A DNA stretch of 62,451 nt, filler included, from 4 parts of 4 records of this genome joined end to end with filler, not necessarily neighbours in it, one strand, 5' to 3'. Positions 1 to 51,266 are shown, numbered from the whole stretch's first letter. Program-made: numbers and translations. Notes: generated from the letters alone by a model not told the origin.

Positions 1-30
1 TTGGTTGGTTGGTTGGTTGGTTGGTTGGTT
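1..30. repeat. (GGTT)n microsatellite at the contig start, inside an intron of the channel gene
   Basis: ttggttggtt... tandem repeat followed by acceptor-like ttcgatag at 32-39. Confidence 0.85.
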
Positions 31-39
31 ATTCGATAG

Positions 40-3000
40 GGTATCAAATGAGTCTCAAGCCTCCGGCCACGTGACGCGGCACAATGGAGATGGCAGGACA
101 AAGCGGCCCGGTGCATCACGGGCCGGGGTTAGTGGTTTCGGGGTGTCGATGCGTGGTTTGAAGTGGGGGTCAGGCAGTGATGCTTGGGCCAGACTGACTG
201 TCTTTTCAGTCGGTGTCTCAGATTGGAAACAGGCAGCTCACCCGGTCATTGGTGGCGTCGGTGCCACGGAGCACAGTGAGCGTAGGCCGGACCGAGAACC
301 GCCTGGGCCAGACCGAAGATGAAGTTGACGATGAAGGTGAAGACGAGGTTGACGCTGGTGGTATGTGCAGGGGTGATGGTGTGGCCGGTAGTGGGGCGGG
401 GCTGACGGCACCGCAGGCGAGGTGCCAGCGATGCCAACCTTTAAACACAAGCGAAAGGACTCGACGATGCCGCAGTCTCTTACGGCCACAAAGATGGGGG
501 CAGGGGCGATCGCCCCTCCTCCCGGAACGCTTCCGAGGCCTCAGTCTGGCCGCATCAAGGCACAGGGTTTGGACTCCAAAGCATTCAAACCTATGGAGTC
601 CATCGGTGCCGAAGGGCCTTCCGTTCCTAAAAAGGCGTTGCAGGTGAGGGCCGGGTCATGAATCTGATGTGATCTGTGCGTGTGTGCATAAGCGGATTGG
701 GTGAGCCGGAAGGCGCGGTGGAGTCGTGGTGTGGGATGGGCAATGTGCTATTCTTAGATTCTGGTGGGGATGTGGTTAGGGCGGCGCGGGTGCAGGTTGG
801 GGCTGGAGTGTCATGCATGGCGCCTCCAATGCCAATGACCACATGATGAATCGTGTTACTGATGCAATCGGCAGGTGTCAAAGCCCTCCCCAGACAAGCC
901 CAAGATGACTCGGCAAGGTTCGTCCATCCCATCACCGGAGAAGGCGAAGATGACTCGCCAAGGCTCGTCCGCCGGGGAGCCATTTGAGCCCAGCAGCGCC
1001 GAGGACCTAATCAAGGCTCTACAGCACGGAGTGCCCACGGACTCGCTAGTGGGAGTCGACCCCATGCCCCACATCCCCCGAAGGCACATGACTATGTCCA
1101 AGGCCGCCCTTCCGCCGCGCCAACGCGCTCTGAAGATGCGGATGATGTCTCGCTCGGTAACGCAGCTTGTCGATGACCAGTTGCCGCTTGGTATCTCTCT
1201 CGACGACAATGGCTCCGTCATCATCAACTTCCGCGACTTTGAGGAAGGAATGTCTCAGGGCAATCTGCCCATGTCTGTGGCGAGTATTAATGCCGCCCAT
1301 GAAGCCATGGCCGCGATAATCTCCCGTGAGCACCCCCTCCACGAGATACGATTCTCGGGCTGCCGGTCGGGGCTCAACTTATTTGAGGCCATGTTGCAAC
1401 TTCTTCACAAGGTGAGAGACTTCGATGAGCTGTATGTCAACCTTGCCGACTATCGCCGGGTGCCGGGCGAGTCGACGGCCGAGCGGGTAGGGGTGCTCGT
1501 GGAGGTCCTCAACACCTATTCCGAGCTTACGCAAACAAGGCCACCCGTGCGTCATGTGGATGTGAGCAAGAACGGACTGTCAAAGCGCGATATCTATGCG
1601 CTCACACAATGTTTGATCAATGCGAAGAATCTTCGAATCCTGAACATCACCGCCAGTAAGCCGGGAGAATATGGTGTGAATGGCCTCAAGACGCTCCTGT
1701 TGACCAATAGGAATATGACGCACTTGCTGCTAGGCGACACTGAGATCAAGAATGTGAGCCTTCTTTCCGAGGGAATCTCACATCAGTCGCACCTGCGTGT
1801 GCTCGATGTCCGCGGGATCCCGATGACTGAGACTGGCGCGGAGGCGCTGGTGGAGGCGCTGATGGGGTTGACGGGGCTGCGGCACTTGAACATGCGGCAT
1901 TGCCACCTAGGGCATCAGGGTGGTGCGGCGTTTAAGTATGTGTGCAGGCTGTTTGGGTTGCCGTCACTGAAGGAGCTCGTCCTGGCGTATAACAAACTGA
2001 GCAAGAAGGTCAGCAAGATATTCTTCGATGCGCTCTGCGAGAACACGTCGCTGGTCATCCTCGACATGAAGGGTTGCGACATCGACAAGTCCACAATGGA
2101 AGAGTTCATCATGCCGGCCCTGAAGAAACGAGCCATCGATCTAATGACGTCATTTGGCATTGCCGTCACGAACCACGAAAGGCCTCAGATCGACGAGCGG
2201 GTGCGGGACGGTCTGATTGACCTAAATCTTCGTGACAATCCGAAGCTTTACCGCTCCCACGGTGAGAGCGAGGATTCCCGGGAACTTACGGAGTCTGTTT
2301 ATCAGTTTTGCGGCAAGGCGCCGGCGCGGTCCCGGTACTTTGGTGAGTCAAACCAATGCAATGCTGCTTTAGAGTTACTTGCTCGTGCTTAACTTCCAAA
2401 CATCGTTACAGAGGATGAGGACCCGATTTTTGGCGAGGTTGAGGACAGATTCACAGACACGATGCAGCGGATGTTCCGCGTCAGGTAAGTTTGGCGCAAC
2501 ATCTTGATCGGGGTTACTTAGCATGCCCCATTTCAGCGCGGGCCCCGCCGCCTACATACGAGGAAAGCTCCTTCCCGCTTACCATCTCATCACGTACCTG
2601 TCTTTTTCCAACCAGGGCATGGAGATCTTCAAGGTGTCCTGGGTGGAGCAAATGTACCACAAGATGACCAACCTCCAACAACTCGATCTCTCTCGCAACA
2701 GGTGATGGCGCCTTGCGATGGGCGGTAAGCCTCCTGAGTGCTAACCGCCTATGCTTCTTTCAGGTTAAGAACTCTTCCCGTGGAATTGGCGATTCTGGCG
2801 CGGCCGAGCCCCACCGGTGTGAATTTTGTGCTCAATATCGGAAGCAACAAGGTTCGCATCCAGTCCACTGACGTGATGGCGGTGCTGTTTGCGTCTAATG
2901 CTGGTATCGTGGGCCTTCCTGAGGACCAGAAGCGAGGTGCGTTCCGCGGGCAGTGAAGATGTGATGTTGTCGAGGTTGCTATGGGCCTCACCCCCTGTGT

Positions 3001-6000
3001 CCAGAGATGAACTCGATGCTAGACTCGGTCTACCACTACGCGGTGGAGCTGTTCCGCTCTTATATCAAACCGAAGAAGGGGGTTCGCATGGCAGGGAAGA
3101 TTCTTGGCGGCATGATGGACAAGCCTGGTGGACCGCCCGGCGGCCGTTCGCGCGCCGGAAGCACGGCGGGGGGAGACGATATGAGGAGAGTGAGTGGATC
3201 ACTGCACTGGCCTATGGGTGTGAGTCTCTGATTCTTTATGTTAGCTGCCGACAAGAGATGGCGTCCGGCAGAACTCATCATTCCGCTCCGTGCGATCAGC
3301 GAACAAGTCTGGGGTGGGGGCGAAGTCTACAAAGTCTAACCTAGAGACGACGGCGTGGGGATCAGATATCTTCGCCAAGGTCAAGGCCATGGCCAAGGGA
3401 GAACAGGAGAATAGTCCCAAGACGGACTGGAAAACTTGTATGATTGTGGAGGGTGTGGTCCAGTGGTATTCGTTTCGCTGACGCCTGCTCCAGTGCTGGA
3501 CAGGCAGGCGTCAGTGGGGGTTGAGGGGGCGACTCCTGAGGTTCCTGCTCCGAAATCAGTGGTGCGGAAGGAGGGTTCCACGATATCGCTCGGGCAGGCG
3601 GCACTCCCCAATGATCTTGTTAAGAACCGTGTGAAGAGCGATGGCGGTATGTTGTTGATTGATGCTGGGGTGCGCCTATTTTGACTCTCCGTCTTAGGCT
3701 TTCGACGGCCAGGTAGTGCGGCATCTACGCGCAGTGCCATGAAGGTACGCCGGCGGGGATGCGTGCCACTTACTTCTAACTGGAACGTGAATTTTCAGCT
3801 GCCCGGTCGCCAATCGCGACAGAATAGCAACAGCGTCGTATTTAAAGAGGGAGGAGGCCAGTCGCGATCGCCTGTTCGGTTAGCGGATGGCAAGGACTGG
3901 GACGATGCTGCGTCGAACGATTCAGCATCAAGCCCCAGCTCTGGAGAAGCACAAGAAGGTGGCGGCGACCGTCTGGAATTATGGGAAGAGGGCGGTAGCG
4001 GAAGGGCTGGTGGTGAGGATATTCTAGGGCTGCACTCGGAAGATGTTACTGATATTGCCCTGCAGGGTTCCGCGATGATGAAAGCGTTTTCACAGACGCG
4101 ATGGACCGTGGCGATGATGAATCAGACATCAGTGAGGACGAGAGAGGTATCCGTGGCCTGGGTTCGGTTCCTGTGGATTCCTGATGTATTTTTTTCCCTG
4201 ATGGAACAGGAGGGGGTTACACGAGCATCATCGACTTCGAGCGCCTAGTGTTCAGCAATCTCCTAAGGTGTATTCCATCCACAGACGTCATCAACCACCT
4301 CGACAAGGACGGCCGGTCCGCGCTGCACATTGCTTGCATGTTCAATCGGTCCCGGGCCGCCACCTGGCTCGTCATGGTAAGTGCCAGCCGCGGCAGCACG
4401 CCCCAGCAGCGTGTGGCTCATTCGTTCCCCGTTGCAGGCCGGAGCTACATTCAACATTACGTCATTTTCTGGCTACCTGCCTGTGGAAATGTATCGCTCC
4501 TACTTCCTCCGCAACCTGATCGTGAGTGCAATTACTAATTAGGCCAACGTCTCAGCGCTGACCACAACACTTCAGGACATTACGTGGAAGGACACATATG
4601 GTGTTCATCCCCATCGCCTTTTTGCCGAGTGCGAGGACTGCGCGGCCGAATATGAATTGTTGCTCCGCCTCAATACTTCCGAAGGACGTCGTCGTCTTGG
4701 TTTCAACCTTGAAGTCAACAAATGGAACAAAATTATCGAGGTTTGAAGATGCGCGGTCTCTGCTTGGTTTGTTGGTCTAATTCTCGTTCTATTAAGAATG
4801 CTCGCTCGCTGAAAGGAATGCTCGAGCTGGACGAGGAAGACTTTGACGTTCACAGCCAAAGTCAATTCAAATTCCCGATGCCGCACCGTGACGTGAACAT
4901 GGAGCGTGCCTTCTATGATATGTGGAACGCCTACCTTGAAATGATGGACGGGACGTCGATGTACTTGCATCTCGCTGCTATGAAGGGGAATATTGCCCAG
5001 ATCCGCGCCATCAAACCGTACATCACCACGGAATACTTTGAGCAGGACTGGAACTGGCGGACACCCTTCCACTACGCCTGCATGCAGGGCAATCCTGATG
5101 TGCTTCATGAGATGATCGAAAGCTCGAAGGAAAGCGAATTGATGGTCTCGCAGAAACCGATGTGGCATATGTGGATGGTGTCGCCAGAGGGCCAGCGTGC
5201 CATGCGGGGCTCCAGTCGCCAGGCGAAGAAGCTGGTGAAGGAGGTGAGTTTGAGTCCATCCCCGTGCTTTTGTGTGTTGTGCATCACCCTCCGCCACTAC
5301 ATGACTTAAATATGGGCCGACCCCTGCAACCTCTATGGCCCCGCTGTTTCTTTTCCCGCTGGTTATGGTCCGGTCGGCAGCGATTTAACCCCTTGCGCAG
5401 ATGGCCCGATGCCAGAAATTCAATCTCTTTGACAAATTCCACAAGACTGCTCTGCACTATGCAGTGCAGCATATGAGCAACGAATGCGTGTCATTGATGT
5501 GCGATGAAAACGTCGATCCCCTTCTCCCGTACTCCAGCAACGAAACTCCATACAATGGCGCCCTGCTGGCCAATGCAGACTTCATTGATGTCAAGGAAAA
5601 CGGAGACGTGGACGGTAAGAAGCCACGCGCCGTGTAGACGGAATGTCACGCTTAACCACTGTGTCACTCAGGTCCAATGGAGGTGTTCGTTGCCAAGTCT
5701 GAACACCAATTGTCAGAGACCCTTCGCATCCTGAATACCACCAGCGGTGTTAAGCGTAAGAGGTTCCGCTACCTGCTGAGTCGCTTCACCAAGACGTTCC
5801 TCGTGTACTTATGTTTCCTCTTCCTCCTGTCTGTGATGTCTCCTACGGCGTCTCAGCTGGGCTGGGTACCCCACAACAGCTTCCTCCTCAACCACGATGT
5901 GTATTCCGCTGTAACCACGTAAGTTTTGCTATTGTTTATCTCAGTGTTGGTGTTGCTGCTGCTGTTGGGTTGGTTTGGTATTACCGTTTGGAGGAGGGAT

Positions 6001-9000
6001 CGAAGGTGGAGGTGCACTCACCACCAAAACCCACAGGGAGTTCATCACCACGGAGGCATATCCAACGACGTTTTTCGACGTCAACAACATAGGTTTGATA
6101 TGGGAGTGGCTGGAAGGGCCCTTCCTCGATATCTTGTTTGCCACGACGGACGCTTATGGGGCAACAATGAGCAGTACGAGACAAAAGTACCTTGACGGGC
6201 AGAATCGATTTCTGGGAAGTGTACGCCTTCGGCAGGTTAGGTCGAAGAAGGATGATTGCTTCGGGCGGACTGTGTCTATGGAAGCGTCGGGGACGGAGGA
6301 GTATTGCTATCCAGACTTCTATCTTGGCAGCCAGGACAAGTCCACGTTTGCGTCTACCACATGGAAGGACTATGGTGGGACCTCTTGGTCAGGTGGGTGA
6401 CGTCGAAGCGCGGGGTTACTTATGTGGGCGGAAGTTGATTCTGTGAGTATAGGGGTGAAGGGGCTGGTTTATCCTGATGTTGGATTTGCAACCGATATCG
6501 AGCCGGGATCCACTACTACGGTAAGCCGCACCTCATGCTAGCTCGCATGTCTTGATTGGTGAGTTGGTGACTCACATTCACTGCCAGGCGTCTTCTGTGA
6601 TATCAGCTCTCAAGACCGCCAAGTGGATCGACGAGGGAACAAGAGCGATATTCATTGACTTCAGCCACTACAATGGCGCGAGCAATCTTGTCCTCTTTTC
6701 ACGGCTGGTGTTTGAACTGCCCGCGACAGGCGGGGTGATTCCATCCGGTGCGTCAAACGTCATGCAGCCCTACATATCCACGACGTTCGAGCTGGCGATG
6801 ACAATGATCGTTGAAATATTGGTGCGTGGTATAGTTCTGAACTCCCCGCACCGCGATTCTTACCGTTGTATGTGGCAGGTTGGGATAATTGTCATTTTAT
6901 ACACATTGGGTGAATTGAACGAGCTTGTGGTGGTTGGATGCAAGCGTTACTTCAGCGACATGTGGAATTTCTTCGATATGAGCGTGTTCTTCCTGTTTGT
7001 GGTGCGCTGGATACTACAAATCGCGCTGGTGGCCGAGTGGGCCATCGAGAGCGTGGACATCGATGACAATTCCGTGAGTAGAATGTTGAAGTGGCAGTTG
7101 GCACGTCCTCACAAAGCAGCTCGGCAGAAATTCTACAATTTGTATTCCGTTTCGGAATTGACAACGGCAACTCGGAAGATTCTTGCGACGATCGTTCTCG
7201 TGTGCTGGCTTCGCGTCTTTAAGATCATTGCTATCCTCCCGGCGGTGGGCCCCGTCGTCGAGGCAGTTCGCGCCACCATCACCAACACCAAGTATGCCCG
7301 CCGTGCGCCGCCGAATAGGCTTGTACTGACGGATGCATTGCAGGGTCGTGGTGTTCATGATGATCCTGTGTCTGTCCTGGTGGATCTTTGCAGTCTCGGC
7401 GTGGATAGCGCTGGGTAACAACGTTGGTAAGTCCGGCCATCACAACACCGTGTCACTTGCTCGCCCGCTGACAACAACTTTTTAGAGGGGTACCGTGACA
7501 TCACTCTTGCCGGCCTGTCAATACTACGGATGACACTGGGCGACGTGGACGTGGACCTGATCAAGACTGCATCACCGGTGTGGGGAGTGATGTTGTTCCT
7601 CCTGATCGTGGTCTTTGGAAACTTCTTGATGCTGAACCTCCTCATTGCCGTGCTGACAGAGGTGTACTCCACCTCCTGGGTGGTGAATGACAAACGCTGG
7701 GAGCAGTTCATCAACCAGATGCTCGGTGAGAATGCCTGGCTGTCTTTTCATTGGTCTTTGCTAACCGTTGGCCTATTAGTTGAGGAGCTCGCGCCGGATC
7801 TGCACCCGTTGTCGCGGTGCTGTCTGCGGGGCGTTATATGTGTGGAGGGTTGCTTCCGGAGGCCAAAGAAGCGAGACAAGTATGACCCGGAGAACCCGCG
7901 GCCCATGAAGGCCAACGATGTATGCCTGCCTTGTGTGTTTGGAAAATGAGGATTTTGGCTAACTGCGGGGACAGATGAAAAAGACAAAAGAGATTGACTC
8001 GGACCTGCCATGCCATCCTCGCCGGCTCAACCGCTACATGCTCGTGTGGAATCCGCCCAGCAAGATGTCCCACAAAACACGCAACATTGCCAAGAAGGCC
8101 ATGGCCAAGCTCAAGCGGGCCAAATCTCTCAAGGTTTGCTTCCGGGCGTCCGCATGCCTCAGTTCTTGGTGTTTCAACTGACAGGATCGGTTTTTCTGCA
8201 GCAAAAACTGGACACGGGGTATGAGTTCACTATATCCAAGGCTGTTACCAAGGTCCACAAGGTTTCCTCCATGGAAGTCCTCCATCTCGGTACGGCCTCG
8301 CATCCCTCCCCCTTTGGGATAGTTTTAACATCACAGTTATCCAGGCAACCAAAAGGAGCTGACAGAGACAATTTTGGTGGAGTCTGAGTTTATCAGCGTG
8401 TGGGACTATTTGATATTCCTTCGTGTGTACGTGGAGCTCCAGTCCAAGATCGAGAAGCTTCGCGACAAGATGAACGCGCCCCAAATATCGGCGGACGAGA
8501 AGAAAATGAATGAACGCATCGACAAGTTGATCGACGGCCTGTCCGGTGGGTTCTCATGGTTTCACACCTCTGGGTATTGGTTCTGATTCCCCGATGCAGG
8601 CGACGGGTTGGTCGCACGGAAGCGGCCTGACCTGGCACAGAAGACTGAGGGTGCCGCTGAGGGTGCTTCGAAGTCAACCGAGGGCGGTGAAGGAGGGGAA
8701 GAGGAGGAGGAGGAAGGCGGGCGTCGGCGCAAGGCTAAGACATTGATCAACCTCTTCACTGGTCTGGCACCAGCCGAGGTCGAGGCGAGACTCCGCCGCC
8801 GATTGCCGGTGAGTGACCGTAGTTGGACAGTGTCTCCTGTGAGGGCTAACCGCATTGTTCCTCGCAGGGTCACATCGCTATGCTGGCGGCACACTTGGAC
8901 TCGCTCCATCACCACGAGGCCCAGGCGTTGCGCAAGTACATCTTTGCCGAGCTGGAGAACCAGATGCAATCTGCCGCGGGAGTGGTGAGTCAGATCCGGG

Positions 9001-11551
9001 TCCTGTCGGGGCTGGCGGGGCTCCTAACGTTACCTGCAGGTGCGAATGATCCACCAGGTTCAATCCGCTGACCCGCCAACGGTTGAGGATACGCTCCGGT
9101 GGGTGCGGCAGGACGTGGAACCCGAGCTTAGCAAACGGGTCAAAACCAATGCTCTCCGCGATGCGGACAATATTGGTATGCAGGGGCGGGGTGTGTCTTT
9201 GTGCTGCGATTTTTCCTGATTGCGATCGCAGTGGAATCGGACCAACTGGACTTGGACATTCTTGTCCACAAGTCGGTGCTGGAATACTTCCAGAAATTCC
9301 GCGACAGCGCTGCTCGACAGCCATGTGCCGGCATGCCCCTTCATGCGTGTGATGACTACGACGACACCAACGTGGATACGATGAACAAGCTCACCAGGAC
9401 CCTGCAGTCCAACAAGATCCTGTGGGAGGACTGGCCCCCGGGCACCATTAGCAAGCTTCTCAAAGGTTTAGTCAACAACGAAATCGAGCTGATGCAGTGC
9501 ACCAGGGTAAGTTTCGCTCTTCTTTCGTGTCGCCCCGCTTTTGGTGCGTATTTATGAGCGCATCTGACACCGTTGCGGCAGTACGGAGAGCCGGGGCACG
9601 AGTACCATATCACCGTGCAGTACGAGTGGTCGTTCATGCAGGTCCTCCGATCGCACGAGGGACGTACACTGATGTTGCTGGAGACACACATTGACCAGGG
9701 CTATGGGTATGAGCGCAGGTAAGCCTTGAGGCAACCGTGCCCGCCTTGAGCAGCGCTCCCGCCACCGGTCTCCTGTTCTTTTCTGTGATGTTCTGTGATG
9801 TTCTGTTATTTTTTTGTTCTTGCGCTCCTGCATATGCCCTGGTTACACTGCTGACATGATTGCAGGTTCTCCATTCCCCGCTTTCCAGTTCCCAGCGGCG
9901 AGGACCCTGCCGAGCGCGCGGAACAGTTCGTTACGGAGAGCTTTGGCAAGGGGATGCAGGCCGAGATCCTAAATGTAGAAAACCTGTTCCTCGTCACCTC
10001 CCGGCACTCGGAGGAGTTCCCAAAGATGTTCCAGCGTGACACTTACCACATGGTAAACGTCAGCGTCGACAGCCTTCCACACGAGGACTTCTTCACATTG
10101 GACGACGGCCGGGTTCGCCACTGGTCCTGGTTTGAGCTCGAGGGTGAGCGCTCCGCGGTGTATCCGCCACCACCGTGCTGACTTGTGCCATAGACTTCAA
10201 TGTCCTTCAGATGGTCCGTTATGAGGGTGAACGGTGCGGTAACAACGAGCGGTATGGCGGGACGCTGTCGGAGTTCTGTGACCTTGTGGCCACGAAAGAA
10301 GTGATCCTGGCTGCCAAGGGAGACTTTGCCAAAGCTCAGAGCTCCACCACCGAGCTTCTGGGCACCCTCGAGGAGTACCTGCGCAAGTAAGTATTTTGTA
10401 ATGCTTCTGTCGAGACTGTTGCCGCATGCGCTGCCGCTGGGTGGGACAGCGGCCGCCGGCCCTAGTTCTCCAGCTGGATGGACGGGTGTGAATGTTGGAT
10501 GTGACTGCGTAGAGCGAGAGGTTGGCTGTTGTGCCCATGCTGACTGCCCCCCCAGGCTCCACGATAAGCGGAATCCACCCGCGACACCGGCCTCATCGTC
10601 TCTCCCAACCATAGAGGATTATGACATTCCAGGTCGGCACCCGAGCAGCCCATCACCTCCCTGGTCGCTCTCTCGTGCTCACTTGCTCTCTGCAACAGGC
10701 ACGCGCCCACAGTCCGGAATGGATATCGACTTCAACCGCAACATAGGCGCACTCGGGCGCAGGCCCGAGGAGAACTTCGCGGCACGCCCTGTGGAGGGCG
10801 AAGTGACGGAGCAGATGGAGCAGATCGCCTTTGCGGAGGAGTATGTGCCCTGTGCTGGGCCATCATGGACAAACACACTGACCGCTCTTTACAACAGCCT
10901 TGCATCGAAGCTGCATTCTCTGCAAGCTAGTCGGGCCGCTACACCCGTCCTCACGGAGGTGATGGATGAGCCTCTCCGGCCATCAGAGATGTCTGCCGGC
11001 TTAGACAGGTGAGGGATTCGCTTTTCCTGATGGACTGGGTGCCTGACGGTCCTGGCAGCGGGAATGCGATGATACCATATTTAGAGACGCATGGCGATGC
11101 ACCCGGTGAAATGGACAGGATCGAGTCCCGAGGGACGGGAAGCGGAACTAGTGTCCACGTAGCACCCCAAGGGGAAGGTGAGTGACATGACGTCAAATAC
11201 TTTGGCGTCTTCTGATTCTCTTTTCTAGCGGAAGCTATGGAGGTCACCCCGAATGCGCCCTTCATGCAGAGGACGGCGATCACACTAGATGCCGATGATG
11301 AATCCTTGGCCATTCTGCCCGCCGGGCCGCAGGACTCGACACCCCGTTTGGAGACGCTGCCAGCGCTGGGTCCGCCTGAACAACCTACACAAGACTCATG
11401 GGTGGATGGACCGAATCCGACCGACGGCGAGGCGCCAGCCCCTCGGGCACGCGATCCCCCCGCCGATCGCAGCACCACACCACTTTCAGAACGGAGCGTA
11501 TCCACAAACTGGGACCCAACCGCAGACCACGGTGAAGACGAAGGGGTCTAA
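40..11551 (+). CDS. 5'-truncated multi-exon giant channel: LRR (RNI-like), ankyrin repeats, polycystin-2/TRPP-type cation channel, coiled-coil, Nudix-like domain, disordered tail
   Basis: GT-AG introns join exons in frame (e.g. 129-209, 361-416, 644-874). LRR: LRHLNMRHCHL, LKELVLAYNKL, LQQLDLSRNRLRTLP. Ankyrin: DKDGRSALHIAC, WRTPFHYAC, FHKTALHYAV. Polycystin motifs: IWEWLEGPF, NRFLGSVRLRQVR, WIDEGTRAIFIDFSHYN, LVFELPATGGVIPS, YFSDMWNFFD, S6 FLMLNLLIAVLTEVY. Stop TAA ends at 11551. Not every junction was checked. Confidence 0.8.
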
Positions 11552-11711
11552 GTACCCTGAGCATCTACCACCACTCAAGAAAGGAATTCCCGACAGTTCG
11601 ATAGTGACATTCCTGTTCTTTTTGTGATTTTTAAGTGGCCCGGTCAATGCAGAAAACAATGCGGCGAATTGACTCGTGATGTCACCATAAAACACCTTTG
11701 ACAGGATTTAT

Positions 11712-14356
11712 TCACATTGTGCTGTACTTCCTGGTGGTACTTTGGCCACGAAGCAGTGATGGAGGCCCACGTACCATTGCTGGAATAAAAACTCCCTCCA
11801 ACATCTTCCTCAGATCCTTCACATTACCCTGACTACGCTCCTCCTCAATGGCACGCACCTCAGGGGCGACAACACGTCGAGGAGTGCCGGAGTCGTCCAT
11901 ATCACGAGGGCCGGCAATGCCATCACTCTCGGGGCTGCGAGTGAATTCTTCACCCCGAGAGTCCTCAGGGCCCTTGAGCTCCAAAGCCGTGTGGATGCCC
12001 AACCGGCTCTCAGGAGGGACTCGGTGCACGCCTATCCCAAGCCTGTTGATGGCTTGGTTACGAGGGGCTCTGTGCATGCCTAGTTCAAGCCTACTGGCTT
12101 TGGAAGAGGGCTCCACATCAGTGGTGACTCCATCACCATCGCGATAGTCCTCGGGTATGGGTGGGCTATCGAACTTCTTGGCATCATCCAGCCAGGAGGC
12201 CACCCAGCCAGAGCGGCCTCCTTGGTCCAATTGGCTTGCCTGGTGCCCTTCAAGGGCACTTGTGGAGAGTGGTTGGACGGGCAGGACGGGCTCGTCAGGC
12301 TCGTCAACATCAACATCAACATCGTTGTCCTCCTCCGCATCGTCAAGATCATTGAAGTCGTCAAAGTCAGCCACATCATCAAAGTCTGCGGACACGGCCT
12401 CAGATATGGAATCGGCGGTGGACTCCTCATCCTCGGCAGTGCACCTATAGTCGCCTTCAAGACTGATGAGGCGCGTGACTCGACTCGATGCAGTCTGATT
12501 CCGCAGAGCGTCAGTCACCCAATGCATCCTTAGGTCATCCCTACAACTCACCGACAGACTATCGGAGCTGGAGGACTCTCCGGGTCCGGCTTCCATTGCG
12601 GTGAAAACCTCACTAAGCTTGTCTACCTCCGCCGGTTGCTTCTTATTAAAGGTTGGGAAGTATTTGAACGTCACATCGACTCCATTTCTATAATATCTGC
12701 CCGAGATCTGTGGTCAGTGGCCCCGTCTCGGACAACGGCGAACACTTACCTTTGCATGGTGGTGTGGAGGTGCATGAGGATAGGCACTTTGTATGACTCG
12801 TACGAGCTAACCACGTTGAAGGCGGGACTCTGCTGCTTGCCCGGGAGAATCAACAATGACAGTGGCCCTGGGAAGGGCCCTTGCTTGTCGACCATGAAAG
12901 GAATTCTTCTCGACGCGAACTGGAAAAATATGGAGTTGCCAAGATCTGCAGCCGGTGTAGACTTGTCAACATTCGATTCACCTTGGCACTAGGGGCCTAT
13001 GCAATCACAACAGCAAGCTTACCCTGTGTAGACATCATCATAGCATGTAAAGCCAACCAATCATAGACGTCCTCCACTATCAACCCAAGGTTCTGTTGCT
13101 TGTCCACCCTCTCTTGGTAAGCCCGTGCCAGTTCTGTGACCGAGACGTGTCAGCTCGGAGTGCCACTGCTGAGGTACGTGCGGGCCTCCAATACACATTC
13201 GTACAACCCGAACAAGAAACAGACAAACACAACTCGACCCAAAACGAAGCCGCCACGAGACTATGCCCAACATCCTCCGGCGATCTCACGTTTCTTCAGG
13301 TTGTCGTTGAACAAGCGGGAGTTCGACCGCCTGAACACAGCCGAGAGGAATCGGTGGACCTCGCGGGTCTTGAGCTCTTCATTCCTAATCTTGCCAATGT
13401 CCACGCCCCGCTGCTGCACGCTATCACCGGCGTTGGTGCTCATGGCCATCGACGCCTGCACTGTCAGTAGTCTGCACTTCCCATCCTCCAAAGTCATTTC
13501 GTCACCGCTATGAATTGACGCCGTTAGATCTCACCACCGCACAGCGGTGGTCTCCAGCCTACCAGTCCAGCCGCACAAGGCCATCGTTGAGGAAGAAATA
13601 CTCCAATTCCTGGCCAATCACTTTCCTATCCCCCTTGTCCTCCTCAGAGCCCACGTCGACGGTGAAGGTCATCAAGAAGTTGGCGCGCGGAATGTCCTGG
13701 AACATCTGGGAGAGGTCCAGTTCACCGTTGTTGTACCGCCACGTGGACTCGACTTCCTTAATGCAGCGCTTGGGCAAGGTGCCATCTCCGAGCTTTTTCA
13801 TGGCAGCGTCCTTAACTTTTCTCCACGCCCTCTTCCAAGGGCCCTTCTCCGACCTGCGTTGAAGATATTCCTTCTGTAAATTCAGATGCATCGTCAGGAA
13901 ACCGTGTGACACACCGCCCCGTACTGGGCACCAATCGCAATGTCCACTCACCGTGACATCATCTGGGCCGCCCGCTGGTTCATTCAACATGGTGTGCCTG
14001 GGGGCCAGCAACTTCGCCGCCCTCTCCATCTCACTGGGCGAACGCTGCGGCGGCGGCTCGCAACAACCCAAGCCTTCACACACATACTGCGCCTGTGCGG
14101 GCACACTCCAGTGGAGTTCTTCCACGATGTTGTATTCTCCCACCAAGGTGGTGACGCCAACCATCCGCTCGGAAAGGTCTCTCTGGAAGCTTTCACTCAG
14201 GCCCCTGCGGAGAGTGTCAGTGCCATCGCATGACAGCCGTTCCGAGAAGCCGGCTCTAGCCAGACATCCGTCCAACATACTCGGGAACTTTCGGGTCCAA
14301 GTCCGGCTCCTCTGAGAATTCACGGTTCGCATTCCTCTGCGCTTCGTCGAATCCAT
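11712..14356 (-). CDS. Multi-exon hypothetical protein with an acidic low-complexity C-terminal half
   Basis: ORFs 13559-14455, 13261-13497 and 11712-12674 join in frame through minus-strand GT-AG introns: ...NLKK|QLARAYQER...MMMSTQ|DLGNSIFF...HTTMQR|YYRNGVDVTFKYF; ATG (MDSTKRR) at 14356. Confidence 0.6.
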
Positions 14357-14779
14357 AGCTCTTCTCCTTGCTGCGCAAAAGTTAAACCACCCGAGTCCCT
14401 GGCGGACGGTTGTCCGGCCTACCGTAATGGTGCCACCGTGTAGGCGAGCTTGCATGAGTTGCAGGTGTAGCGATACAAGTTGCTCCGAACAGTTCCCTGG
14501 TACCTGTCGTAGTCAATGTCCTTGCAGCTGTGGAGGGCGTGGGTTAACCGCTCTGACGGCTCAACAAAGGCGGGGCGGAGGACTCACGTATTCTCTTGGC
14601 CGAGGGCGTGGTGCGCCATGGCCACCAGGGCCAGCAAGCCCAGCACGACTCTCGCCCGACCCATGCTCCTTCGGTTTCCGACTATTGGAAGCCGCGGTAC
14701 TTATCAACCATTCGGCCGGGCCTTGGCGCCTTGCCACACTGCGACGCTGCCCGTAGTTGGCGGGAACGGAGGGGGCAAC

Positions 14780-15380
14780 TACCCGTGTGGGCCGCGGACG
14801 GCCCGCGCCGGAGACTCATCACAGACTCGTGCCCGGCTTAAGGAGCCCAAGGGAGCCAGTCACTGGGCTGGCCGACAGTGCGGTGGGCCGGCGGCCGGGG
14901 CGGCCGGGGGCCCGGACGCGCGGCGGGCGGTGCGGAGACCGATGGGGGGGGGCGGGCCCGCTCCGGCCGCCCACGTCCGGGCGCCCGGGCCATGACCAGT
15001 GGGAGCAGACAAGACCCCGCCCTTCAACTCAGTGGCCGCCAGGCACTTGGGCGGCGGCGGCGGCCCCCGGGCGGCGGCGCCGCGGCCCGGGCGCCGGCGG
15101 CCCGCCTCCCCGGGCCTCGCTCAGCTCTACGCACTGAGACCATCCTCGGGACGTTTATTGATTGACAGGTGTCAATTATCAGGTGAGGAAAGTTAAACTT
15201 CAGACCGGGTTCCCGCGGCCGCGCGGCCCGGCCCGCCCGTACTGACTGCCACCCCGGCCGCGTCCCGGCCGGCCCGGCCCGGCCCCGCGTCCGGTTCCTC
15301 CTCTGGTGGCCGGGCGGCGACTCAGACCGGCCGGCCCCCCCGGTGTTGTGGCCCGACAACTGGTAAGCTACGGCGAGACT
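14780..15380. promoter_or_regulatory. GC-rich island between divergent genes (putative bidirectional promoter)
   Basis: Extreme GC with many GGCC/CCGG runs between the ATG at 14356(-) and the ATG at 15541(+); AT-richer core ~15150-15200. Confidence 0.55.
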
Positions 15381-15540
15381 ATCCACGTCATGCCACGCCG
15401 CTCCGTCCGCAAGTCATATTCAGGCGGCTGGGACTCCTTCGCGAGTAGAACATGTACCATAGACAACCACTACAAGCATGTCCTCGCTGTTGTGGACGAC
15501 ACTTGAGTGTCCTCCAGCAGACCCCGGGCTGTGGCGCGGA

Positions 15541-16565
15541 ATGCAGGGTGCTCCTCTGACCAACAACGGTTCCGGAAAGGACTTTTACGCCATCTTGGGC
15601 GTGGAACGGGATGCCTCTAAGGAAGAAGTCAAGCAAGCATTCAAGGTATGTTATCGTCGCTGGTTGCGACGCAACGGTTCAGTGGCTTCAAGGTCTTGAC
15701 TGAGCGCACTCTCGTTTAATTGTTTTGTGCTTGACGTCCTGGTGTGGGGGGTTTATGTTGTGCTGGTCTAGTCACAGGGCGGTCGTTTTGTGTTTGAGTT
15801 GGCCATGCCGTAATTTGTGTTTGATTCTGTTTGACTGGCTGATGGTGGTCTACCAGGTGAAGGCTCGCGAGCTCCACCCGGACAAGAACCTTGATAACCC
15901 CAGTGCCAAGGAAGAGTTCCAGGCTGTCTCAGAAGCTTATAATGGTGTGCCCCACCCTCCTCTTTCCCCCGTTCCTCCCTCTCCTTCGTATCCTAACAAG
16001 CGTCTCAGTTTTGAAGGATCCCGAGAAGAGGCGGCTATACGACCTCGGTACACCGGATGACCAGATCTCCATTCTCGCGGAGCCGGACCCCATCAGCGAA
16101 TTTTTGCGCAAAGTATTCGGGGTGGGTGCTTGGGTATTTTTCTTGGTGTGTGATGCAATGTTGACGCGGGCTGATAGATCCGAATGGTGGACCCGCACGA
16201 CGAGAACGACAAGCTAGAGCTCACGGGCTTCAACAAGCTGATGTGGGCCCTGTGCTGTTTGACGTGCTGTTGCTGGCTCCCGTTCGCATGCTGCTTGTGT
16301 TGTGGAATTATTTGCTGCATCAAATGCTGTGCACAGAGGCTGGGCTTTGCACCGCCTGAGGAGGTGGGTGGTAGGCGCATGTGCGGCGAGGATGTGTGCT
16401 GATTATATGGTGTCGTGTTTGGTGCAGCCGGCCAACATGGATGACTTTGATGATATTGAGAACCAGGCAAACAACGCCGGTAACGCCGCCGGTAACAGCG
16501 ATCAGCCGGGAGCATGGACGGCGGGGCCTAGCGGCACGGCCGGCACGGGAGACACGGCGGAGTAA
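15541..16565 (+). CDS. DnaJ-domain protein with a cysteine string (DNAJC5/CSP-like), multi-exon
   Basis: DFYAILGVERDASKEEVKQAFK|VKARELHPDKN (HPD motif)...AYN|VLKDPEKRRLYD; Cys string LCCLTCCCWLPFACCLCCGIICCIKCC; TAA ends at 16565. Confidence 0.85.
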
Positions 16566-17412
16566 GGTCGCGGTGTGTGTGTAGCAGTGGTACCTGATGA
16601 GGCCGTCTGCAGAGGCGACGACGAGCAGTGGACGTATGAGAGGCTAGACGCACTGTCAGTGTCTGTCCTCAAGGCTATTTTGGTCAGTGCAAGTGCCACC
16701 ACTCGCGCTATGCCCTGACTTTGTGTGTGCAGGAGGGCCGGAATGTCGACTACAACGCATGCGTGGAGAAGAGCGACCTGGTCAAGTGCGCTCTCCGGAC
16801 CCTCAACCCAACGGCGGCTGCCAACCTGTGAGGCCCACCCGGTGGTTGGGGCGGGTGCACACACGGTGGGTTTCGCATGGCCTTAACCAACGCTTTGGCC
16901 CGGGTTAGCCAGTCGTCATAGTATGCCGGGTTCAGTTCTGGAAGCAGGGTGGCCAGGGTTAGGGCTTAAACAGTGGTTTGAGACCATTTCACCATCATTG
17001 CCATGTGTAAAATATGAATCACATCATCGATAATGCTATTGTCCAATAAGCTGTCCCTGGTTACCTGTCACCACATCAACGGAAGGCGCATGGACCGATT
17101 GGGCTGGAATCACTACCAGTTTTCGGTCGGGCCTTAGTGGAAACTATCCGGCAAGGCCATCTCAGTGGGCCCCGTGCCAGTCAATCAGTACGGTGCCTAG
17201 ACAGACTATGGCTTTGTCCCGGCCACCGACTGTCCGACGGACCGCGCAGTGCCAAGCCGTCCTGACGTGCTCACTGCCAGTCACATCAGTCAGCGCCCGT
17301 CTCTTGCTGCCAAGCCCCCGCTGCTCCTGTGAGCGACGGGCTGGCTGGTTTGGGCATACAGACAAACAAACTGTATATAAACTACCTGGGCTGCAGGGCG
17401 AGACTTAGTACC

Positions 17413-18694
17413 ATGGCCCACTTGGAACCACAGCAGGTGCGGAAGGCCGCCGTCGCCATCCTCAAGTATGCCGAGAAGAACGCAGGTGTGTGGTGGTATT
17501 CCACCTGTGGGGCCCGGTGGTCTTACGAGGTGGCGCAGGACTTCTGAGCGAGGACGGGGAGTTGATTTATGTTCAGATCAGCGTGAAGAAGATCCCGGAC
17601 AGCAACCGGAAGAAGCCGTTCAGGATGTCAGTAACTGCGCATTTGGACTTACCACTTGCTCGTGTTGACTTAGATTTGTGACAGTCCTCTTCCTAACCCA
17701 ATTTACTCGGCAATGGGCCGGGGATGCCTCCTCGTGAAGGACCCCCAGCGGGAGTACAAGGACCTGCTCATGGAGAAGAAGGTCGGGGGGATCGAGAAGG
17801 TGCGCCGTGCTTGCGTGCTTTGGATTGGGGTGGCTGACATAGAGGGGTGGCAGGTCATTGGTGTCACAAAGCTCAAGGCAAACTACAAGACGCACGAGGC
17901 GAAGCGGGAGCTGTGCCACTCGTACCCGTTCTTCATGGCGGACGACCGCATCATCCCGTTGCTGCCAGGGCTTCTGGGCAAGGAGTTCTTCAAGAAGAAG
18001 AAGTATGCGTGTAGCGATGGTGTGTTGCGGGGCTGGCGCTAATGGCGTGTGCAGGCAGCCAATCCCTGTCAACATTGCAAAGAAGGACCTGGTGAAGAAC
18101 GAGATCAAAAAGGCACAGAGCAGCACGTACATGCACGTGGGGGAGGGGCCGTGCAGGTAAGATTTTCGTTCATATTTCGTTGGTTGTCAGTTGTCCAATG
18201 CATGGTCGCCGGATAAGCGGCAAGCCTTGCAGAGTGATGAAGTGGTTTGGTTTGTGTTGCGGTGGGGTTGTTGATCCTGGGCTGATGCATTCTTGCAGCT
18301 CCATTAAGATTGCCTTGAGCAACATGAGCGAGGATGAGGTATATGATAATATTTTCGAAGGCGTGAACTACGCCGTGCAGAACTTTGTTGCGCAGAAGTG
18401 GAAAAATGTTCAGGTAACTTGGAGAAATCTTGTCAATGTGGTGTTTAACTGAGGCTGGTGGCGTGTAGACGGTCACGGTGAAGACAGCAGAGAGCGTTGC
18501 ACTTCCTATCTTCAACTCGCTGCCCGAGGCTGTCCTTAAGGTGAACCCCAAAGACAAAGGTGAGCAGACGTGACACCGAGGGTCGCTCGGCGGCTGAGGA
18601 TGTGTGTGCAGCAGCGCCGGCGAAGAAGGGCAAGAAGAAACAGCCCAAGAAGCCCGATACGTCATCGGAGGACGAAGAGGACTCGGACGAGTAA
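17413..18694 (+). CDS. RSL1D1: Ribosomal L1 domain-containing protein (RSL1D1/Utp30/Cic1-like), multi-exon
   Basis: KKPFRIPLPNPIY, CLLVKDPQREYK, VIGVTKLKANYKTHEAKRELCHSYPFFMADDRIIPLLPGLLGKEFFKKKKQPIPV, KTAESVALPIFNSLP. Confidence 0.85.
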
Positions 18695-18815
18695 ATAATT
18701 GAATTCTGAATCGACTACGACGTCACCATGTGTGCAGGTCTTTTTTGAGTAATACAATTATGGATAGGTTTATTGCCTGCCCCGGTAGAGAGGCCACTGG
18801 ACGGATGACGGGGCG

Positions 18816-20249
18816 TTACTGCGGGGTCAAGTCACCCATGTGAGCGGAAGACCGGCGGCGAGACAGGGTCTGCACAGAGTGGTACACGACCTTGTCCAAC
18901 ATGCCGCTCACTGTGAACACTCCGCCGAGGATGGCGCACATAGACGTCAAAAAGTGTGTGAAAGCGCGGCTTCGCTCCTCCACCTTGACCATGATGGGAG
19001 AGAGATCGTAGAAGAAGAAGACCCCAGGGAGAGCATGGCCGCTGGTATCGGTGCGGCGGTAGTGCTCGGTGGCACTGAACTGGTTGGTCTGCACGGGCTG
19101 GCCACGGATAGGCTCATACACAGTCGGGACCACCTTGAGGAAGTACTGCCGCAACAAACGTCAGACGCTGACGGTACTAAGAAAAGCTCCCCCAGCCAAC
19201 CCCAATGATACCACCAACCATCCATCAGCCCCGGCAACGTCTTGCTACTCACCTGGTGCATCGCGGAGGCGTCCTTCACTACACGGGTGCGCCCGTCCAG
19301 CGGGTTGCTCACACCCGGCACCTTATCACCAAACCTGAGGTAGTTCACCGTGTGTGTGACGTTGAACATCTGTGCTCCGCTCCTGTATGCCATGAAGTCG
19401 TGGACCTGCAAGTTGCCCATCTGGAACGAGCGTCCGGGAGCGATGTGGAAGTTGCCCGCCACCTGATATACAGCGTAAGCTCGACTCCCTCCACGGCCCA
19501 AAATTCGCGTACTGACCTTGCTCACAGTGAGCTGGCCATACAGCTGGCATCCCTCGCCAAGCTGGTCTCCAAACAAGTTCTTTACGCCCTCCTTCTTACA
19601 CTGCACCGCCCTCCACTTAGAGTTCGCAACGCCACGGCGACAGGACGCCTCACCTGCTCAATTTTGGTTGGATCCAGCCCCCAACCCTTACGTTGGTATG
19701 CCACCCTCACGCTCTCGCAGGTGTTGCAGCAGGCGTTGGGGTCATCACTGCACACAGGTCAGTCCACGCCAAAACAAGCTCCTGGGATAAAGCAACCCAC
19801 CTTGCGCCGTAGCAAGTCATGCACAACTCCTCCTTCTTTTCTTCCTTCTCTCCCTGCTTCTCCGGTGACGTCACCGTGTCCGGCCCGTCTTTGACGGCCG
19901 TCCCCACAGCCTTCCCGTTAGAGTCAAGCCTGCGCTTGTATATGTTCTGGTACACATTCTGCTGCTGCTCCCCACTCACGTCCATGGTATCAAGAGATAT
20001 AACATTGCACGGCAAGTGCGGGAAGGTGACGTCCAGGTAGACTTTCATCTTTTCATTTCTCGTCACGTCCACATATAAGTGGTCTACATGGTCGACAGTC
20101 ATATACGACGACAGCTCAGACACGAAAAGGGTGGTCATGAACACAATGGAAACGATGGAAATCACAGCACCAGACACCGTCTTGGTCCGAAAGTCCTCTA
20201 GAGTCTTTGGATATGCATCGAGAAACCTGAGGCCGCGAATAGCGCTCAT
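18816..20249 (-). CDS. ERGIC3: ER-Golgi intermediate compartment protein 3 / Erv46, multi-exon
   Basis: LDAYPKTLEDFRTKTVSGA, CYGA...CCNTC, EGCQLYGQLTVSKVAGNFHIAPG, YFLKVVPT, PGVFFFYDLSPIMV, FTHFLTSMCAILGGVFTV. Confidence 0.93.
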
Positions 20250-20379: not shown

Positions 20380-21080
20380 CTAGTAGAGACCCGAGTGTCC
20401 GATCAGTCTCGGCCAACCATAGGCGACCAGAGCGTGCGGCTCCCCGCCCTTCGCCCGGGACCCGCCTGGTGGGGCCGAGGGTCCGCGTCGAGTGTCCACC
20501 ACCCGGCCTGACTCCGCGCCGGCGGTGGCGCCGGAGCTCGGCCGACCAGCGGGGCGGCCGCTGCAGGCGCGACCCCACGTGCGGGGCCCGGCCGGCCGGG
20601 CCGGGCGGCGGGGTAACGGGGCCCGGGCCGGCAGGGCGCAACGCGCCAGCGCCAGCCGGGCAGTCCCGGTCCGGTCACCCACTCGCGGGAGGCCGGCCCC
20701 GGTCCGGTGACCGGTGGCAGCACCGGCGGGGGCCGGGCCGCGGCGCCGTCCCACGGGCGAGCCCGGGCCTGCGGAGCAGGCTCCAGACTCCCACCGCCCC
20801 CGGAGTGCACTGGTCGACGATCGACCATAATTGATATATGTCAAAACTATTATGGTAAATGAAGATTAATCGCTATACAAAGGTGTGTAGGTGCAAAAGG
20901 GAGGTGGTTTGGCCTGCGGCCGGCCCAACCGTCCCCCACCCTCACGGTCACCGGCGGGAGATGCCGAGTCGTGACGTGAGAGTGAGTGCCGACTGACTGC
21001 ACAAGCGACAACCTGAGTTAGCTCCCGGGGCTCAAGGCTCCTCCATCGACTCAACCGAGTGCCGCTGCCGGACCCAGTCA
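20380..21080. promoter_or_regulatory. GC-rich island between divergent genes (putative bidirectional promoter)
   Basis: Very high GC between the ERGIC3 ATG (20249,-) and the protease ATG (21348,+); AT-rich core 20825-20880. Confidence 0.55.
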
Positions 21081-26659: not shown

Positions 26660-26759
26660 NNNNNNNNNNNNNNNNNNNNNNNNNNNNNNNNNNNNNNNNN
26701 NNNTTAATTAATTAANNNNNNNNNNNNNNNNNNNNNNNNNNNNNNNNNNNNNNNNNNNN
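26660..26759. other. Artificial contig linker (N44-TTAATTAATTAA-N44)
   Basis: N runs flanking a six-frame stop linker; identical copies at 41003 and 53945. Confidence 0.98.
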
Positions 26760-30879: not shown

Positions 30880-31510
30880 CACAGAGCTACGCGCGTCGGC
30901 CCCCCGACCCGGCCCGCTAGCAGCGTGGAGGAGCCAGGCGGGGGCTGCGACGATCCTTGCTGGAGTGACGGGGGGCCGACGGCTCAATCACGCAACGGTT
31001 GATTTCGGAAGGTTCTTCACTTGCGTCAAAACAAACTAGAGAATTTACTGGGCCCCGCCGCGCCACCAATCCGCCCCGGATCACGGAACGAACTCGGACT
31101 GGCCAGGGTGAGACGCGGGCTGATCCCGTAGCCGGGCGGCCGGCCCACGAGGCGGACGCTCAGCCGTCGAGAATTCCTGATTTCGTTGACTCCCCGGCCC
31201 CCACGTAGGCCCACCACCCCGTCACAGTGAAACCAACAACCCAACGAACCGCCGCCCCTGCGCACTCAACCACGGCCAACCTCGTTCGGACCGGACTCAC
31301 CGTCCCCGCCGCCGCCGGCCGGCCCGGCAGTCGCCCCAGTACCTGGTAGACGGGAAGGGACACGGGCGCCCGGCTCGGCCGCAGACCGCGGCCCAGGCGC
31401 CCGGCGGGCAGGACGGGCCGGGACGCGGGAAGGCCTCTAGCACTTCCGTTGTTCCGGGCGCCCGGCGGGCGGTCGCCTCAGGTCCATGCCACCCAAGGCG
31501 GCCGAAGAAC
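30880..31510. promoter_or_regulatory. GC-rich island between divergent genes
   Basis: Lies between the metacaspase ATG (30755,-) and the ATG at 31578(+); AT-richer core ~31000-31050. Confidence 0.5.
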
Positions 31511-31577
31511 AAACCAAATTGGCAGAGGGCCTATTTAATGTTGGATCGGGTATAACCAATTCACTGGGACAGTAGTC

Positions 31578-35140: not shown

Positions 35141-35319
35141 GACGAAATACTCTGTGGCAAGGATGGCAAGGTGAAAACAGGTAGATGCCATTTTTGAAGT
35201 AGTTCCATCATGCACATGAAATCACAGCGATCACCAGAAGATTAAAGCGAACCAACACTGTGCTTTTCAGTGCTTGCGATGAGATCGTCATCTGAACTAT
35301 CGAACCATTCGGCTACGCA

Positions 35320-35960
35320 GGAGCTACCGGCCGGAGCCTCGCCCTGCCCGGCTTGGTCACGCGTGCCCGGCCGTGAGTGGGCCGGGGGGGAACAGCCCGC
35401 CGTCCTGACCCGGACGCAAGGCAGGCCCTTGAAGCGGGCTGGGGCCGCGGCTCCGGCCGGCCGCAGGCCGGTCCCGGCGGCCGCTCGGCCCGCCGGGGGC
35501 CCTGAGCGGCCGCCGGGGGCCCTGCGCCAGCCGGACGGCTGGGAACTGACCGGGGACTCATGAGACCGCGGTTTCTCGTGTTTCACATCATAGTAGGGCT
35601 CGTGACGAGGGAACGGTAACCGCCACAGACGAGACCATTTTGATGTCATTATATGTAGATATTCGCTATTCATTACCAGTCATCCCATATGGGAATGAAA
35701 TGAACCGCCGTTTGAAGGGCGGGCACGCCACGCCGCCGGTGGCCCGGGCTGCCGTCAGTCTGCGTGGCCCGCTGCCGGGCGTGGTGCGGACCCGGACTCA
35801 CTGAGTGGTCGCGGCGACGGCAGGGGCCGGTGCCCCGGGCGCCGCAGAGCCCGGCGCCCCTGCCTCCCTCGCCTCGGAGGCACTGCGGCAGCCGCGGCGG
35901 GGGCCGCGCCCGGTCACCGGCGCCTTTGTGCCGTGCGGCCTCACCATCGGCCGGTGGGTA
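35320..35960. promoter_or_regulatory. GC-rich island with a central AT-rich core, between divergent genes
   Basis: Two GC-rich arms around an AT-rich core at 35560-35710. Confidence 0.55.
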
Positions 35961-36319
35961 CTCATCACTGTTTGGGCCAGCTTGTGAGATGCTACCTGGT
36001 AACTCGTGGTCCTCAGGGTGGAGCCGTTCCGCATGACGGCACGGGCCGAACTGGTATTGCCGCTTGGACCACGGCGCTGCCTATCTTGCCGTATTGGTGT
36101 TTTTCTTTCTTTTCTTTCAGCCGGTCTTATAGTCAGAGTTTTCGGCGACACAGGATTCTGCAAGCACACCCAAGACTGTCACTACCCATCACACGTTCGT
36201 TTTCTTGCTTTATTTACGTCTGTATTTTTTGGGGTGCCATTTACGGCGGCACCGAAGAAGAGTGTGGAAAAGGGGGTAAGGGGTTGGCTCAAACCAATAC
36301 TACTGAGCCAATTGCAACC

Positions 36320-41002: not shown

Positions 41003-41102
41003 NNNNNNNNNNNNNNNNNNNNNNNNNNNNNNNNNNNNNNNNNNNNTTAATTAATTAANNNNNNNNNNNNNNNNNNNNNNNNNNNNNNNNNNNNNNNNNN
41101 NN
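41003..41102. other. Artificial contig linker
   Basis: N44-TTAATTAATTAA-N44. Confidence 0.98.
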
Positions 41103-42163: not shown

Positions 42164-42202
42164 GCTGCCAGCTCATTTCGCGACTCTTTTCCGGATTTTT
42201 CG

Positions 42203-43096: not shown

Positions 43097-43118
43097 CGCT
43101 AGGCTCACGGGAAATCAG

Positions 43119-43418: not shown

Positions 43419-43545
43419 ACCGTTCCCTTCGCGCGGGAGGTCACCGATGAGATTTCTCTCGGGGGTCGCGGGTGGCAGAGTTGACGCAATACACAGGTGA
43501 AACGAGGCATACCACTCGATAAAATTATCGAGTGGTACATCCATA

Positions 43546-44585: not shown

Positions 44586-44586
44586 C

Positions 44587-44961: not shown

Positions 44962-44993
44962 GGACCAAGCCTAACCGGGCCCGGCCACTTGCG

Positions 44994-46244: not shown

Positions 46245-46248
46245 CCGC

Positions 46249-47166: not shown

Positions 47167-47173
47167 CTCTGGA

Positions 47174-51255: not shown

Positions 51256-51266
51256 GGCTAATCGAT

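Follow-up and report, generated by a model that had tools for sequence, protein, structure and literature searches.

Polycystin-2 (TRPP2, encoded by PKD2) and PKD2L1 combine a PKD_channel pore with a TOP domain between the membrane helices S1 and S2 and a helical segment after the pore, and to our knowledge cytosolic repeat arrays are usually said to be absent from TRPP channels. Cytosolic N-terminal ankyrin repeats occur in other transient receptor potential (TRP) channels, namely TRPA, TRPN, TRPV and TRPC, whose pores belong to the group-1 TRP type and have no TOP domain. In TRPM2, a TRP-superfamily pore and a helical segment are followed by the Nudix-fold domain NUDT9-H, and the Nudix box of the vertebrate TRPM2 is degenerate and inactive according to the available part of PMC6461439. 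Oomycete PKD proteins with additional domains have also been noted, and the oomycete PKDRR channels represent protist PKD-family pores with lineage-specific extra cytosolic domains (PMC7399828, in the text available). Here we describe a locus at positions 431 to 11551 on the plus strand of a 62,451-nucleotide stretch of DNA (four parts of four records of one genome joined with filler, hereafter the window). With a probability of about 0.6, this locus is a single gene, rich in introns and with about 40 exons, coding for a polycystin-2-like (TRPP) cation channel subunit of about 2770 residues. Compared with PKD2, the predicted protein is longer by about 1270 residues at the N-terminus, comprising leucine-rich repeats (LRRs) and ankyrin repeats, and by about 900 at the C-terminus, and no EF-hand was detected in it; identity to animal PKD2 is 27–29% over the channel exon. 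It shares the N-terminal ankyrin repeats with TRPA, TRPN, TRPV and TRPC and differs from them in its TRPP-type pore, and its extra cytosolic domains are LRRs and ankyrin repeats where the oomycete PKDRR channels have RyR domains.

The window consists of eukaryotic DNA with a GC content of about 55%, in which short GT-AG introns abound, and across it the introns take the form GTRNG, 50–60 nucleotides (nt) in length, with a CTRAY branch site 16–24 nt before YAG. A frame-blind, pattern-based scan for this signature, run on both strands, gave 30 matches on the plus strand and 3 on the minus strand between 400 and 11600, compared to 0 and 10 over the convergent neighbour (11700–14500) and 8 and 0 over 15600–19200. 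In 200 mononucleotide shuffles of the locus, the mean was 8.2 matches and the maximum 19. The strand specificity of the signature together with this shuffle control indicates that the whole locus is spliced on the plus strand. The curated model follows a path from 431 to 11551 with 40 exons and 39 GT-AG introns (median length 57 nt), giving a coding sequence of 8301 nt and 2766 amino acids with one terminal stop only, which bears out the in-frame spliced path through all parts that had been proposed in the first-pass annotation of this DNA. Exact signature matches account for 22 of the 39 introns, and, from the S6 exon to exon 10194–10386, for 9 of 11. Moreover, a codon table trained solely on exons upstream of 7725 and scored on the 36 exons of an earlier model was highest in the model frame in 34 of them (the misses being 8202–8289 and 11059–11185), and the codon bias was unchanged downstream of the pore. 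The earlier claim that no GC-rich promoter island lies between the parts also agrees with our data, as no 400-nt window in 1–14400 exceeded a GC content of 0.627 and no GC island was found inside the locus, though such islands mark other gene starts in the window.

With regard to the ends of the gene, the span 40–11551 given by the first-pass annotation shares its 3' end with our model. A start at position 40 is doubtful, since no plausible ATG occurs before 431. Intron-like signals ahead of this ATG (a signature intron at 163–209 and a second signal at about 361–415) point to further exons or untranslated region (UTR) upstream of it, and both the promoter and the true 5' end may lie outside the window, on its upstream side. 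At the 3' end, the path search offered near-equal alternatives at 10390, 11012, 11185 and 11551. The coordinates of the features are collected in Table 1.

Table 1. Features of the predicted channel gene, in window coordinates
Feature	Span	Strand	Exons	Remarks
Putative first coding exon	431..643	+		ATG 431; open reading frame (ORF) 392..661; codon score -0.10, weak yet best of six frames
RNI-type LRR region	875..2936	+	875-2342, 2412-2484, 2537-2701, 2764-2936	
S/G-rich low-complexity linker, LRR to ankyrin	3005..4131	+	3005-3189, 3245-3437, 3494-3646, 3698-3744, 3799-4012, 4066-4131	Six small exons; exact exons uncertain
Ankyrin-repeat region	4210..5614	+	4210-4376, 4438-4521, 4576-4740, 4797-5243, 5401-5614	
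S1 helix, then extracellular polycystin (TOP) domain	5672..6821	+	5672-5918, 6037-6374, 6453-6520, 6588-6821	
S2-S6 and PKD-type pore	6879..7725	+	6879-7073, 7128-7291, 7344-7426, 7486-7725	Pfam PKD_channel, Ion_trans
Post-pore cytosolic region	7780..9506	+	Eight exons	
Helical, coiled-coil-like exon	8345-8545	+		Weak Pfam matches only, on 8347-8544, e.g. ABC_tran_CTD E 0.025
Glu-rich stretch	8600-8808	+		
Exon without known family	9232-9506	+		Atlas on 9234-9506: no family
Candidate alpha/beta domain	9582..10386	+	9582-9718, 9866-10143, 10194-10386	
P/A/E/D-rich tail	10556..11551	+	10556-10632, 10699-10840, 10898-11008, 11059-11177, 11229-11551	Stop 11549-11551

The Pfam matches place the LRRs, the ankyrin repeats and the TOP domain with the pore where they had been claimed to be, in plus-strand exons within 863–7949. 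The ORF 863–2392 matched LRR_6 (PF13516) with an E value of 1e-09 and 38.2 bits against a cut-off of 23.4, identifying RNI-like LRRs, and it also matched LRR_1, LRR_4 and LRR_14, the last over residues 284–414 (about 1712–2104). The LRR-looking exons at 2537–2936 gave weak matches, the best being LRR_4 with E 0.054 in 2538–2699. The linker that follows has an open frame and signature introns at 3190–3244, 3647–3697, 3745–3798 and 4013–4065, and no Pfam family was found in it. Ankyrin repeats were identified by matches to Ank_4, Ank_3, Ank_2 and Ank in the ORFs 4185–4538, 4713–5309 and 5389–5637; Ank_4 exceeded its gathering score in two of these ORFs, as did Ank_3 and Ank in 4713–5309, while the ORF 5389–5637 stayed below threshold (Ank_2, 23.4 bits versus 27.3).

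The channel core was recognised by two families. Polycystin_dom (PF20519), representing the TOP domain, matched in 5915–6400 (E 1.5e-10) and in 6525–7418 (E 1.1e-13), covering profile positions 4–91 and 137–190 of 199 after a hydrophobic S1 exon. PKD_channel (PF08016) matched the adjacent ORFs 6525–7418 (E 2.9e-06, profile positions 18–118) and 7431–7949 (E 6.3e-06, positions 162–224), both above the gathering score, which identifies a TRPP pore module. In a search of PDB sequences, the exon 7488–7724 matched S6 segments of Cav/Nav channels (E 3.5e-07) and Polycystin-2 (6a70_A, E 1.2e-03, query 13–62). The translated pore loop contains an LGD stretch, which may correspond to the PKD2 selectivity filter.

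To place this protein among its relatives, we searched with the channel exon. A word-index search returned two animal PKD2 proteins only, while an exhaustive profile search returned 418 proteins at E ≤ 1e-3, four of them at 1e-10 and none at 1e-30, the best relative being 33% identical over a long stretch. Among 13 relatives scanned with Pfam, nine combine ankyrin repeats with the PKD pore, four combine LRRs with it, and three carry all three parts: P0003 (environmental; LRR_8, Ank and PKD), P0097 (environmental; SPRY, LRR_6, Ank and PKD) and P0011, a complete transcript ORF of Euglena longa (EukProt EP00668 P001744/5; LRR_6, Ank, PKD and a coiled coil). In these three proteins, LRR, ankyrin, TOP and PKD_channel follow one another as we predict here for a single polypeptide, and the proteins align colinearly with it over ankyrin repeats and channel. 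They differ from it in having 1373–2385 residues, 23–33% identity and unrelated C-termini, and the LRRs of P0003 are of another type (LRR_8). BLAST against the 152 retrieved proteins aligned model residues 889–1668 with P0003 309–1224 in a single high-scoring segment pair (E 4e-52), and since this one pair spans both parts, the ankyrin part is tied to the channel. By the same comparison, the LRR part shows weak colinear matches to its counterparts in P0011 (E 0.003) and P0003 (E 0.036). The LRR-ankyrin-TRPP core, which the first-pass annotation took to be independently assembled and new, is thus, as judged by these sequences, a recurrent protist architecture (Euglena longa, diplonemids, uncultured eukaryotes) that also occurs in transcript-derived ORFs. 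Full-text literature searches and passages of PMC7399828, PMC4494053 and the preprint 10.64898/2026.06.15.732245 yielded no account of TRPP channels that carry LRRs or ankyrin repeats.

The C-terminal tail varies within this family, with a coiled coil in one member, FYVE in two and nothing recognised in others. Three relatives come from diplonemid transcriptomes (P0020, P0063 and P0008), and two of them, P0020 (Artemidia motanka) and P0063 (Namystynia karyoxenos), resemble the present protein in having ankyrin repeats before the TRPP pore and a distinct module after it. Unlike here, that module is a FYVE zinc finger, and no LRR was detected in either. Across the protist TRPP relatives P0020, P0063, P0072 and P0046, the extra modules comprise FYVE at the C-terminus (diplonemids), EF-hands together with ankyrin repeats (an environmental cluster) and WD40 propellers (Cavostelium). 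None of the 13 scanned relatives has a C-terminus comparable to that of our protein, whose C-terminal extension hence appears to be without known counterpart among the relatives compared. NUDIX was likewise found in none of the 13, for P0046 among 25 of 42 families listed.

The exons after the pore continue the same path. The introns linking the eight post-pore exons to the S6 exon and to one another match the signature in seven of eight cases, and the model frame was the best by codon bias in seven of these exons, the miss being 8202–8289. No Pfam family rose above noise in the exons downstream of 7949, where matches were sub-threshold only. The tail at 10556..11551 is probably disordered; it matched no Pfam family and showed weak codon bias except in 10699–10840, and it contains signature introns at 10841–10897, 11009–11058 and 11178–11228. 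The earlier domain order of LRRs, ankyrin repeats and TOP domain with pore is upheld, followed by a long cytosolic tail, on one plus-strand path that leaves no space for intergenic DNA.

It has been proposed in the first-pass annotation that a Nudix-like domain follows the coiled coil and that the protein is a candidate "chanzyme". The corresponding explanation is that a TRPP pore independently gained a C-terminal Nudix-fold module which senses or hydrolyses a nucleotide (e.g. ADP-ribose) and gates the channel, in convergence with TRPM2/NUDT9-H. With Atlas, a protein language model, the exon 9867–10142 gave a top match of 0.92 (181 of 256 features shared, recognition 2474) in a cluster with NUDIX on 11% of its members, later rows being Nudt16-like, NUDIX_2 and TIRR; all 10 of the 10 family-bearing matches among the best ten belonged to the Nudix clan, in contrast to the neighbouring exon 9234–9506, which gave no family. 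According to the tool's own figure, however, a top match of 0.9 arises in 4–10% of shuffled proteins. In a phmmer search of the PDB, 68 residues of the query (24–91) aligned with residues 53–122 of the ADP-ribose pyrophosphatase MutT (4kyx_A), spanning the Nudix helix and the strands after it; this match was non-significant (E 0.47) and was gone when the read-through of the candidate domain was used. AlphaFold2 (AF2) modelled the read-through without an alignment at a pLDDT of 39.6, and the low-confidence order of strands, a helix at PAERAEQFVTESF and strands is compatible with a Nudix fold. The place of the domain after a coiled-coil-like segment also mirrors TRPM2 (available parts of PMC6461439 and PMC11479946). 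Against this, neither the exon nor the read-through of its two in-frame introns matched NUDIX (PF00293) or related models up to E 10 in Pfam, NCBIfam or PHROGs. The candidate exons gave no other informative family in these databases either, all matches being unrelated and below threshold. The spliced candidate domain scored 0.3 bits against a hidden Markov model (HMM) built from 11 annotated Nudix proteins of E. coli K-12, all 11 of which scored 13.6–63.7 bits when left out in turn, and hhalign gave a probability of 0.5% for Nudix. Profiles thus bear out the LRR, ankyrin, TOP and PKD_channel parts of the earlier description and fail to bear out its Nudix part. Furthermore, a word-index search found no homologues of the read-through on which an alignment could be built. 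A regular-expression scan of the whole 2766-residue model detected neither the strict Nudix box GX5EX7REUXEEXGU nor its REUxEE core, and by our reading of the translation either plausible register of GEDPAERAEQFVTESFGKGMQAEILNVENL keeps one of the three box glutamates, for which reasons nucleotide hydrolysis is unlikely. We consider the odds that the candidate domain has a Nudix-like fold to be about even. Hydrolase activity, as far as the sequence tells, is unlikely; the domain may at most bind a ligand or partner without hydrolysing it, and the "chanzyme" claim is not supported. The protein resembles TRPM2 in its TRP-superfamily pore, helical segment and possible Nudix-fold domain, and differs from it in TRP subfamily, with a PKD-type pore and an N-terminus of LRRs and ankyrin repeats; neither the TRPM N-terminal homology region (by Pfam) nor NUDT9/NUDIX homology was detected. 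In the available text of the preprint 10.64898/2026.06.15.732245, NUDIX domains are reported for TRPM channels of choanoflagellates and for one channel of the TRPW clade, and none is mentioned for TRPP. Taken together, we regard the independent gain of a nucleotide-sensing or -hydrolysing module as improbable. We hold an equally low expectation for its narrower form, a catalytically dead Nudix-fold sensor behind a coiled coil on a polycystin-type pore, gated by nucleotide, with LRR and ankyrin arrays feeding in protein signals.

Several points weigh against a single channel gene. The single mRNA is deduced from splicing signals and not from RNA, the path finder always returns some path, 17 of the 39 introns meet a relaxed signature only, and the GC-rich linker admits many other open splice choices. 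The nearest relatives are 23–33% identical, and the 13 that were scanned were a non-random sample, chosen from 150 listed hits for their rank and for a length of at least about 920 residues. Moreover, no relative among the 152 retrieved proteins aligns by BLAST beyond model residue 1700, so homology cannot tie the C-terminal ~900 residues to the channel. Exon 7975 opens with an ATG, and retention of the intron 7920–7974 would lead to an in-frame stop at 7947–7949 (ORF 7431..7949), by which the gene could conceivably be split or yield a shorter isoform of the channel. This ATG and stop, the path search that always returns a path and the open splice choices in the linker, together with the C-terminal part being common to no relative and the typical length of the relatives' channels (700–1500 residues), speak for two or three adjacent plus-strand genes. 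These could be, for example, one for an LRR protein, one for an ankyrin-TRPP channel with its stop at 7947–7949 and one for a soluble protein starting from ATG 7975, with the single path as an artefact of permissive path finding in GC-rich DNA. On the other hand, all inter-exon gaps from 2343 to 10193 are 50–157 nt long and begin with GT and end with AG, most with CTRAY 16–24 nt before the acceptor, and gaps of this size leave no room for a terminator and a promoter. In the 55-nt gap 7920–7974 itself, the donor reads GTATG, the branch CTAAC and the acceptor CAG. As this is a complete cis-intron signature, we rejected the idea that ATG 7975 starts a new gene in a trans-spliced polycistron. The lack of a GC island in the locus, the codon bias that continues past the pore and the occurrence of LRRs, ankyrin repeats and PKD in single transcript-derived ORFs elsewhere also speak against separate genes, and we therefore find this explanation unlikely, if a little less so than a nucleotide-gating Nudix module. 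A decaying pseudogene or an assembly chimera is highly improbable: the window does contain assembly gaps (26660–26759, 41003–41102 and 53945–54044), two of which flank a bacterial-looking block, but no N occurs within 1–11600, and the ORF runs through 2766 codons uninterrupted by a stop and has kept its codon bias.

If the locus is one TRPP channel gene, the cytosolic N-terminus of its product would consist of RNI-type LRRs, a disordered linker of about 290 residues and ankyrin repeats, followed by S1, the TOP domain and S2–S6 with the pore. About 900 cytosolic residues would then follow the pore: first a helical segment resembling a coiled coil, next an acidic stretch, then two small domains without known family and finally a disordered tail. 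By analogy with polycystin-2, four subunits would assemble into a non-selective cation/Ca2+ channel. The LRR and ankyrin arrays may act as docking or regulatory surfaces for partners or the cytoskeleton, the post-pore helices may aid assembly, and the tail domains may bind a regulator. Gating by nucleotides as in TRPM2 is possible but unsupported.

In the rest of the window, the intron pattern reads out the transcribed strand block by block, with 0 plus-strand and 12 minus-strand matches in 12001–16000 and 8 and 0 in 16001–20000. GC islands of 0.65–0.815 recur at other gene starts, for example at 14801–15600, 20401–20800 and 35201–36000; the short GC-rich islands (0.66–0.815) comprise these three and 31201–31600, 54401–54800 and 62001–62400. 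They coincide with strand switches of the intron signals or precede long ORFs, and look like promoter islands, possibly bidirectional. Only about 160 nt (11552–11714) separate the channel stop at 11551 from the end of the minus-strand ORF that converges on it (11715–12713), so that the 3' UTRs are very short or overlapping. Positions 1–30 form a (TTGG)n microsatellite. A single-exon plus-strand ORF of 1327 residues (35699–39679) with GRAM, GT28/UDPGT and a C-terminal FYVE resembles sterol 3-beta-glucosyltransferases, its best matches being 35–46% identical and coming from oomycetes, early fungi and EukProt transcripts. As the channel matches do not exceed 33% identity and those of this glucosyltransferase 46%, the source lineage appears to be poorly sampled. 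Between the paired N gaps at 41003–41102 and 53945–54044, the block 41003–54044 has a GC content mostly of 0.57–0.66, long intron-less ORFs on both strands, among them an arginase-family ORF (49841–50914, E 4.1e-81), and hardly any intron signatures; this block looks bacterial, possibly a contaminant included by scaffolding or a recently transferred segment. Finally, two very long plus-strand ORFs of 1003 and 1252 residues, 15 nt apart in 54544–61323, the second with a von Willebrand type D domain (E 3.5e-14), may be one gene.

The locus and its relatives point to a branch of protist TRPP channels whose N-termini carry LRRs and ankyrin repeats and whose C-terminal modules are interchangeable. 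If the candidate domain were indeed a Nudix-fold sensor, the protein would have reinvented the TRPM2 design independently, channel and Nudix having then been fused a second time, by convergence, in the other major group of TRP channels, and it would offer a simple test system for the coupling of ligand-binding tails to a TRP pore. If the domain has no Nudix fold, the protein would be an ordinary member of an unnamed family, which would still show how the polycystin scaffold is decorated outside animals.

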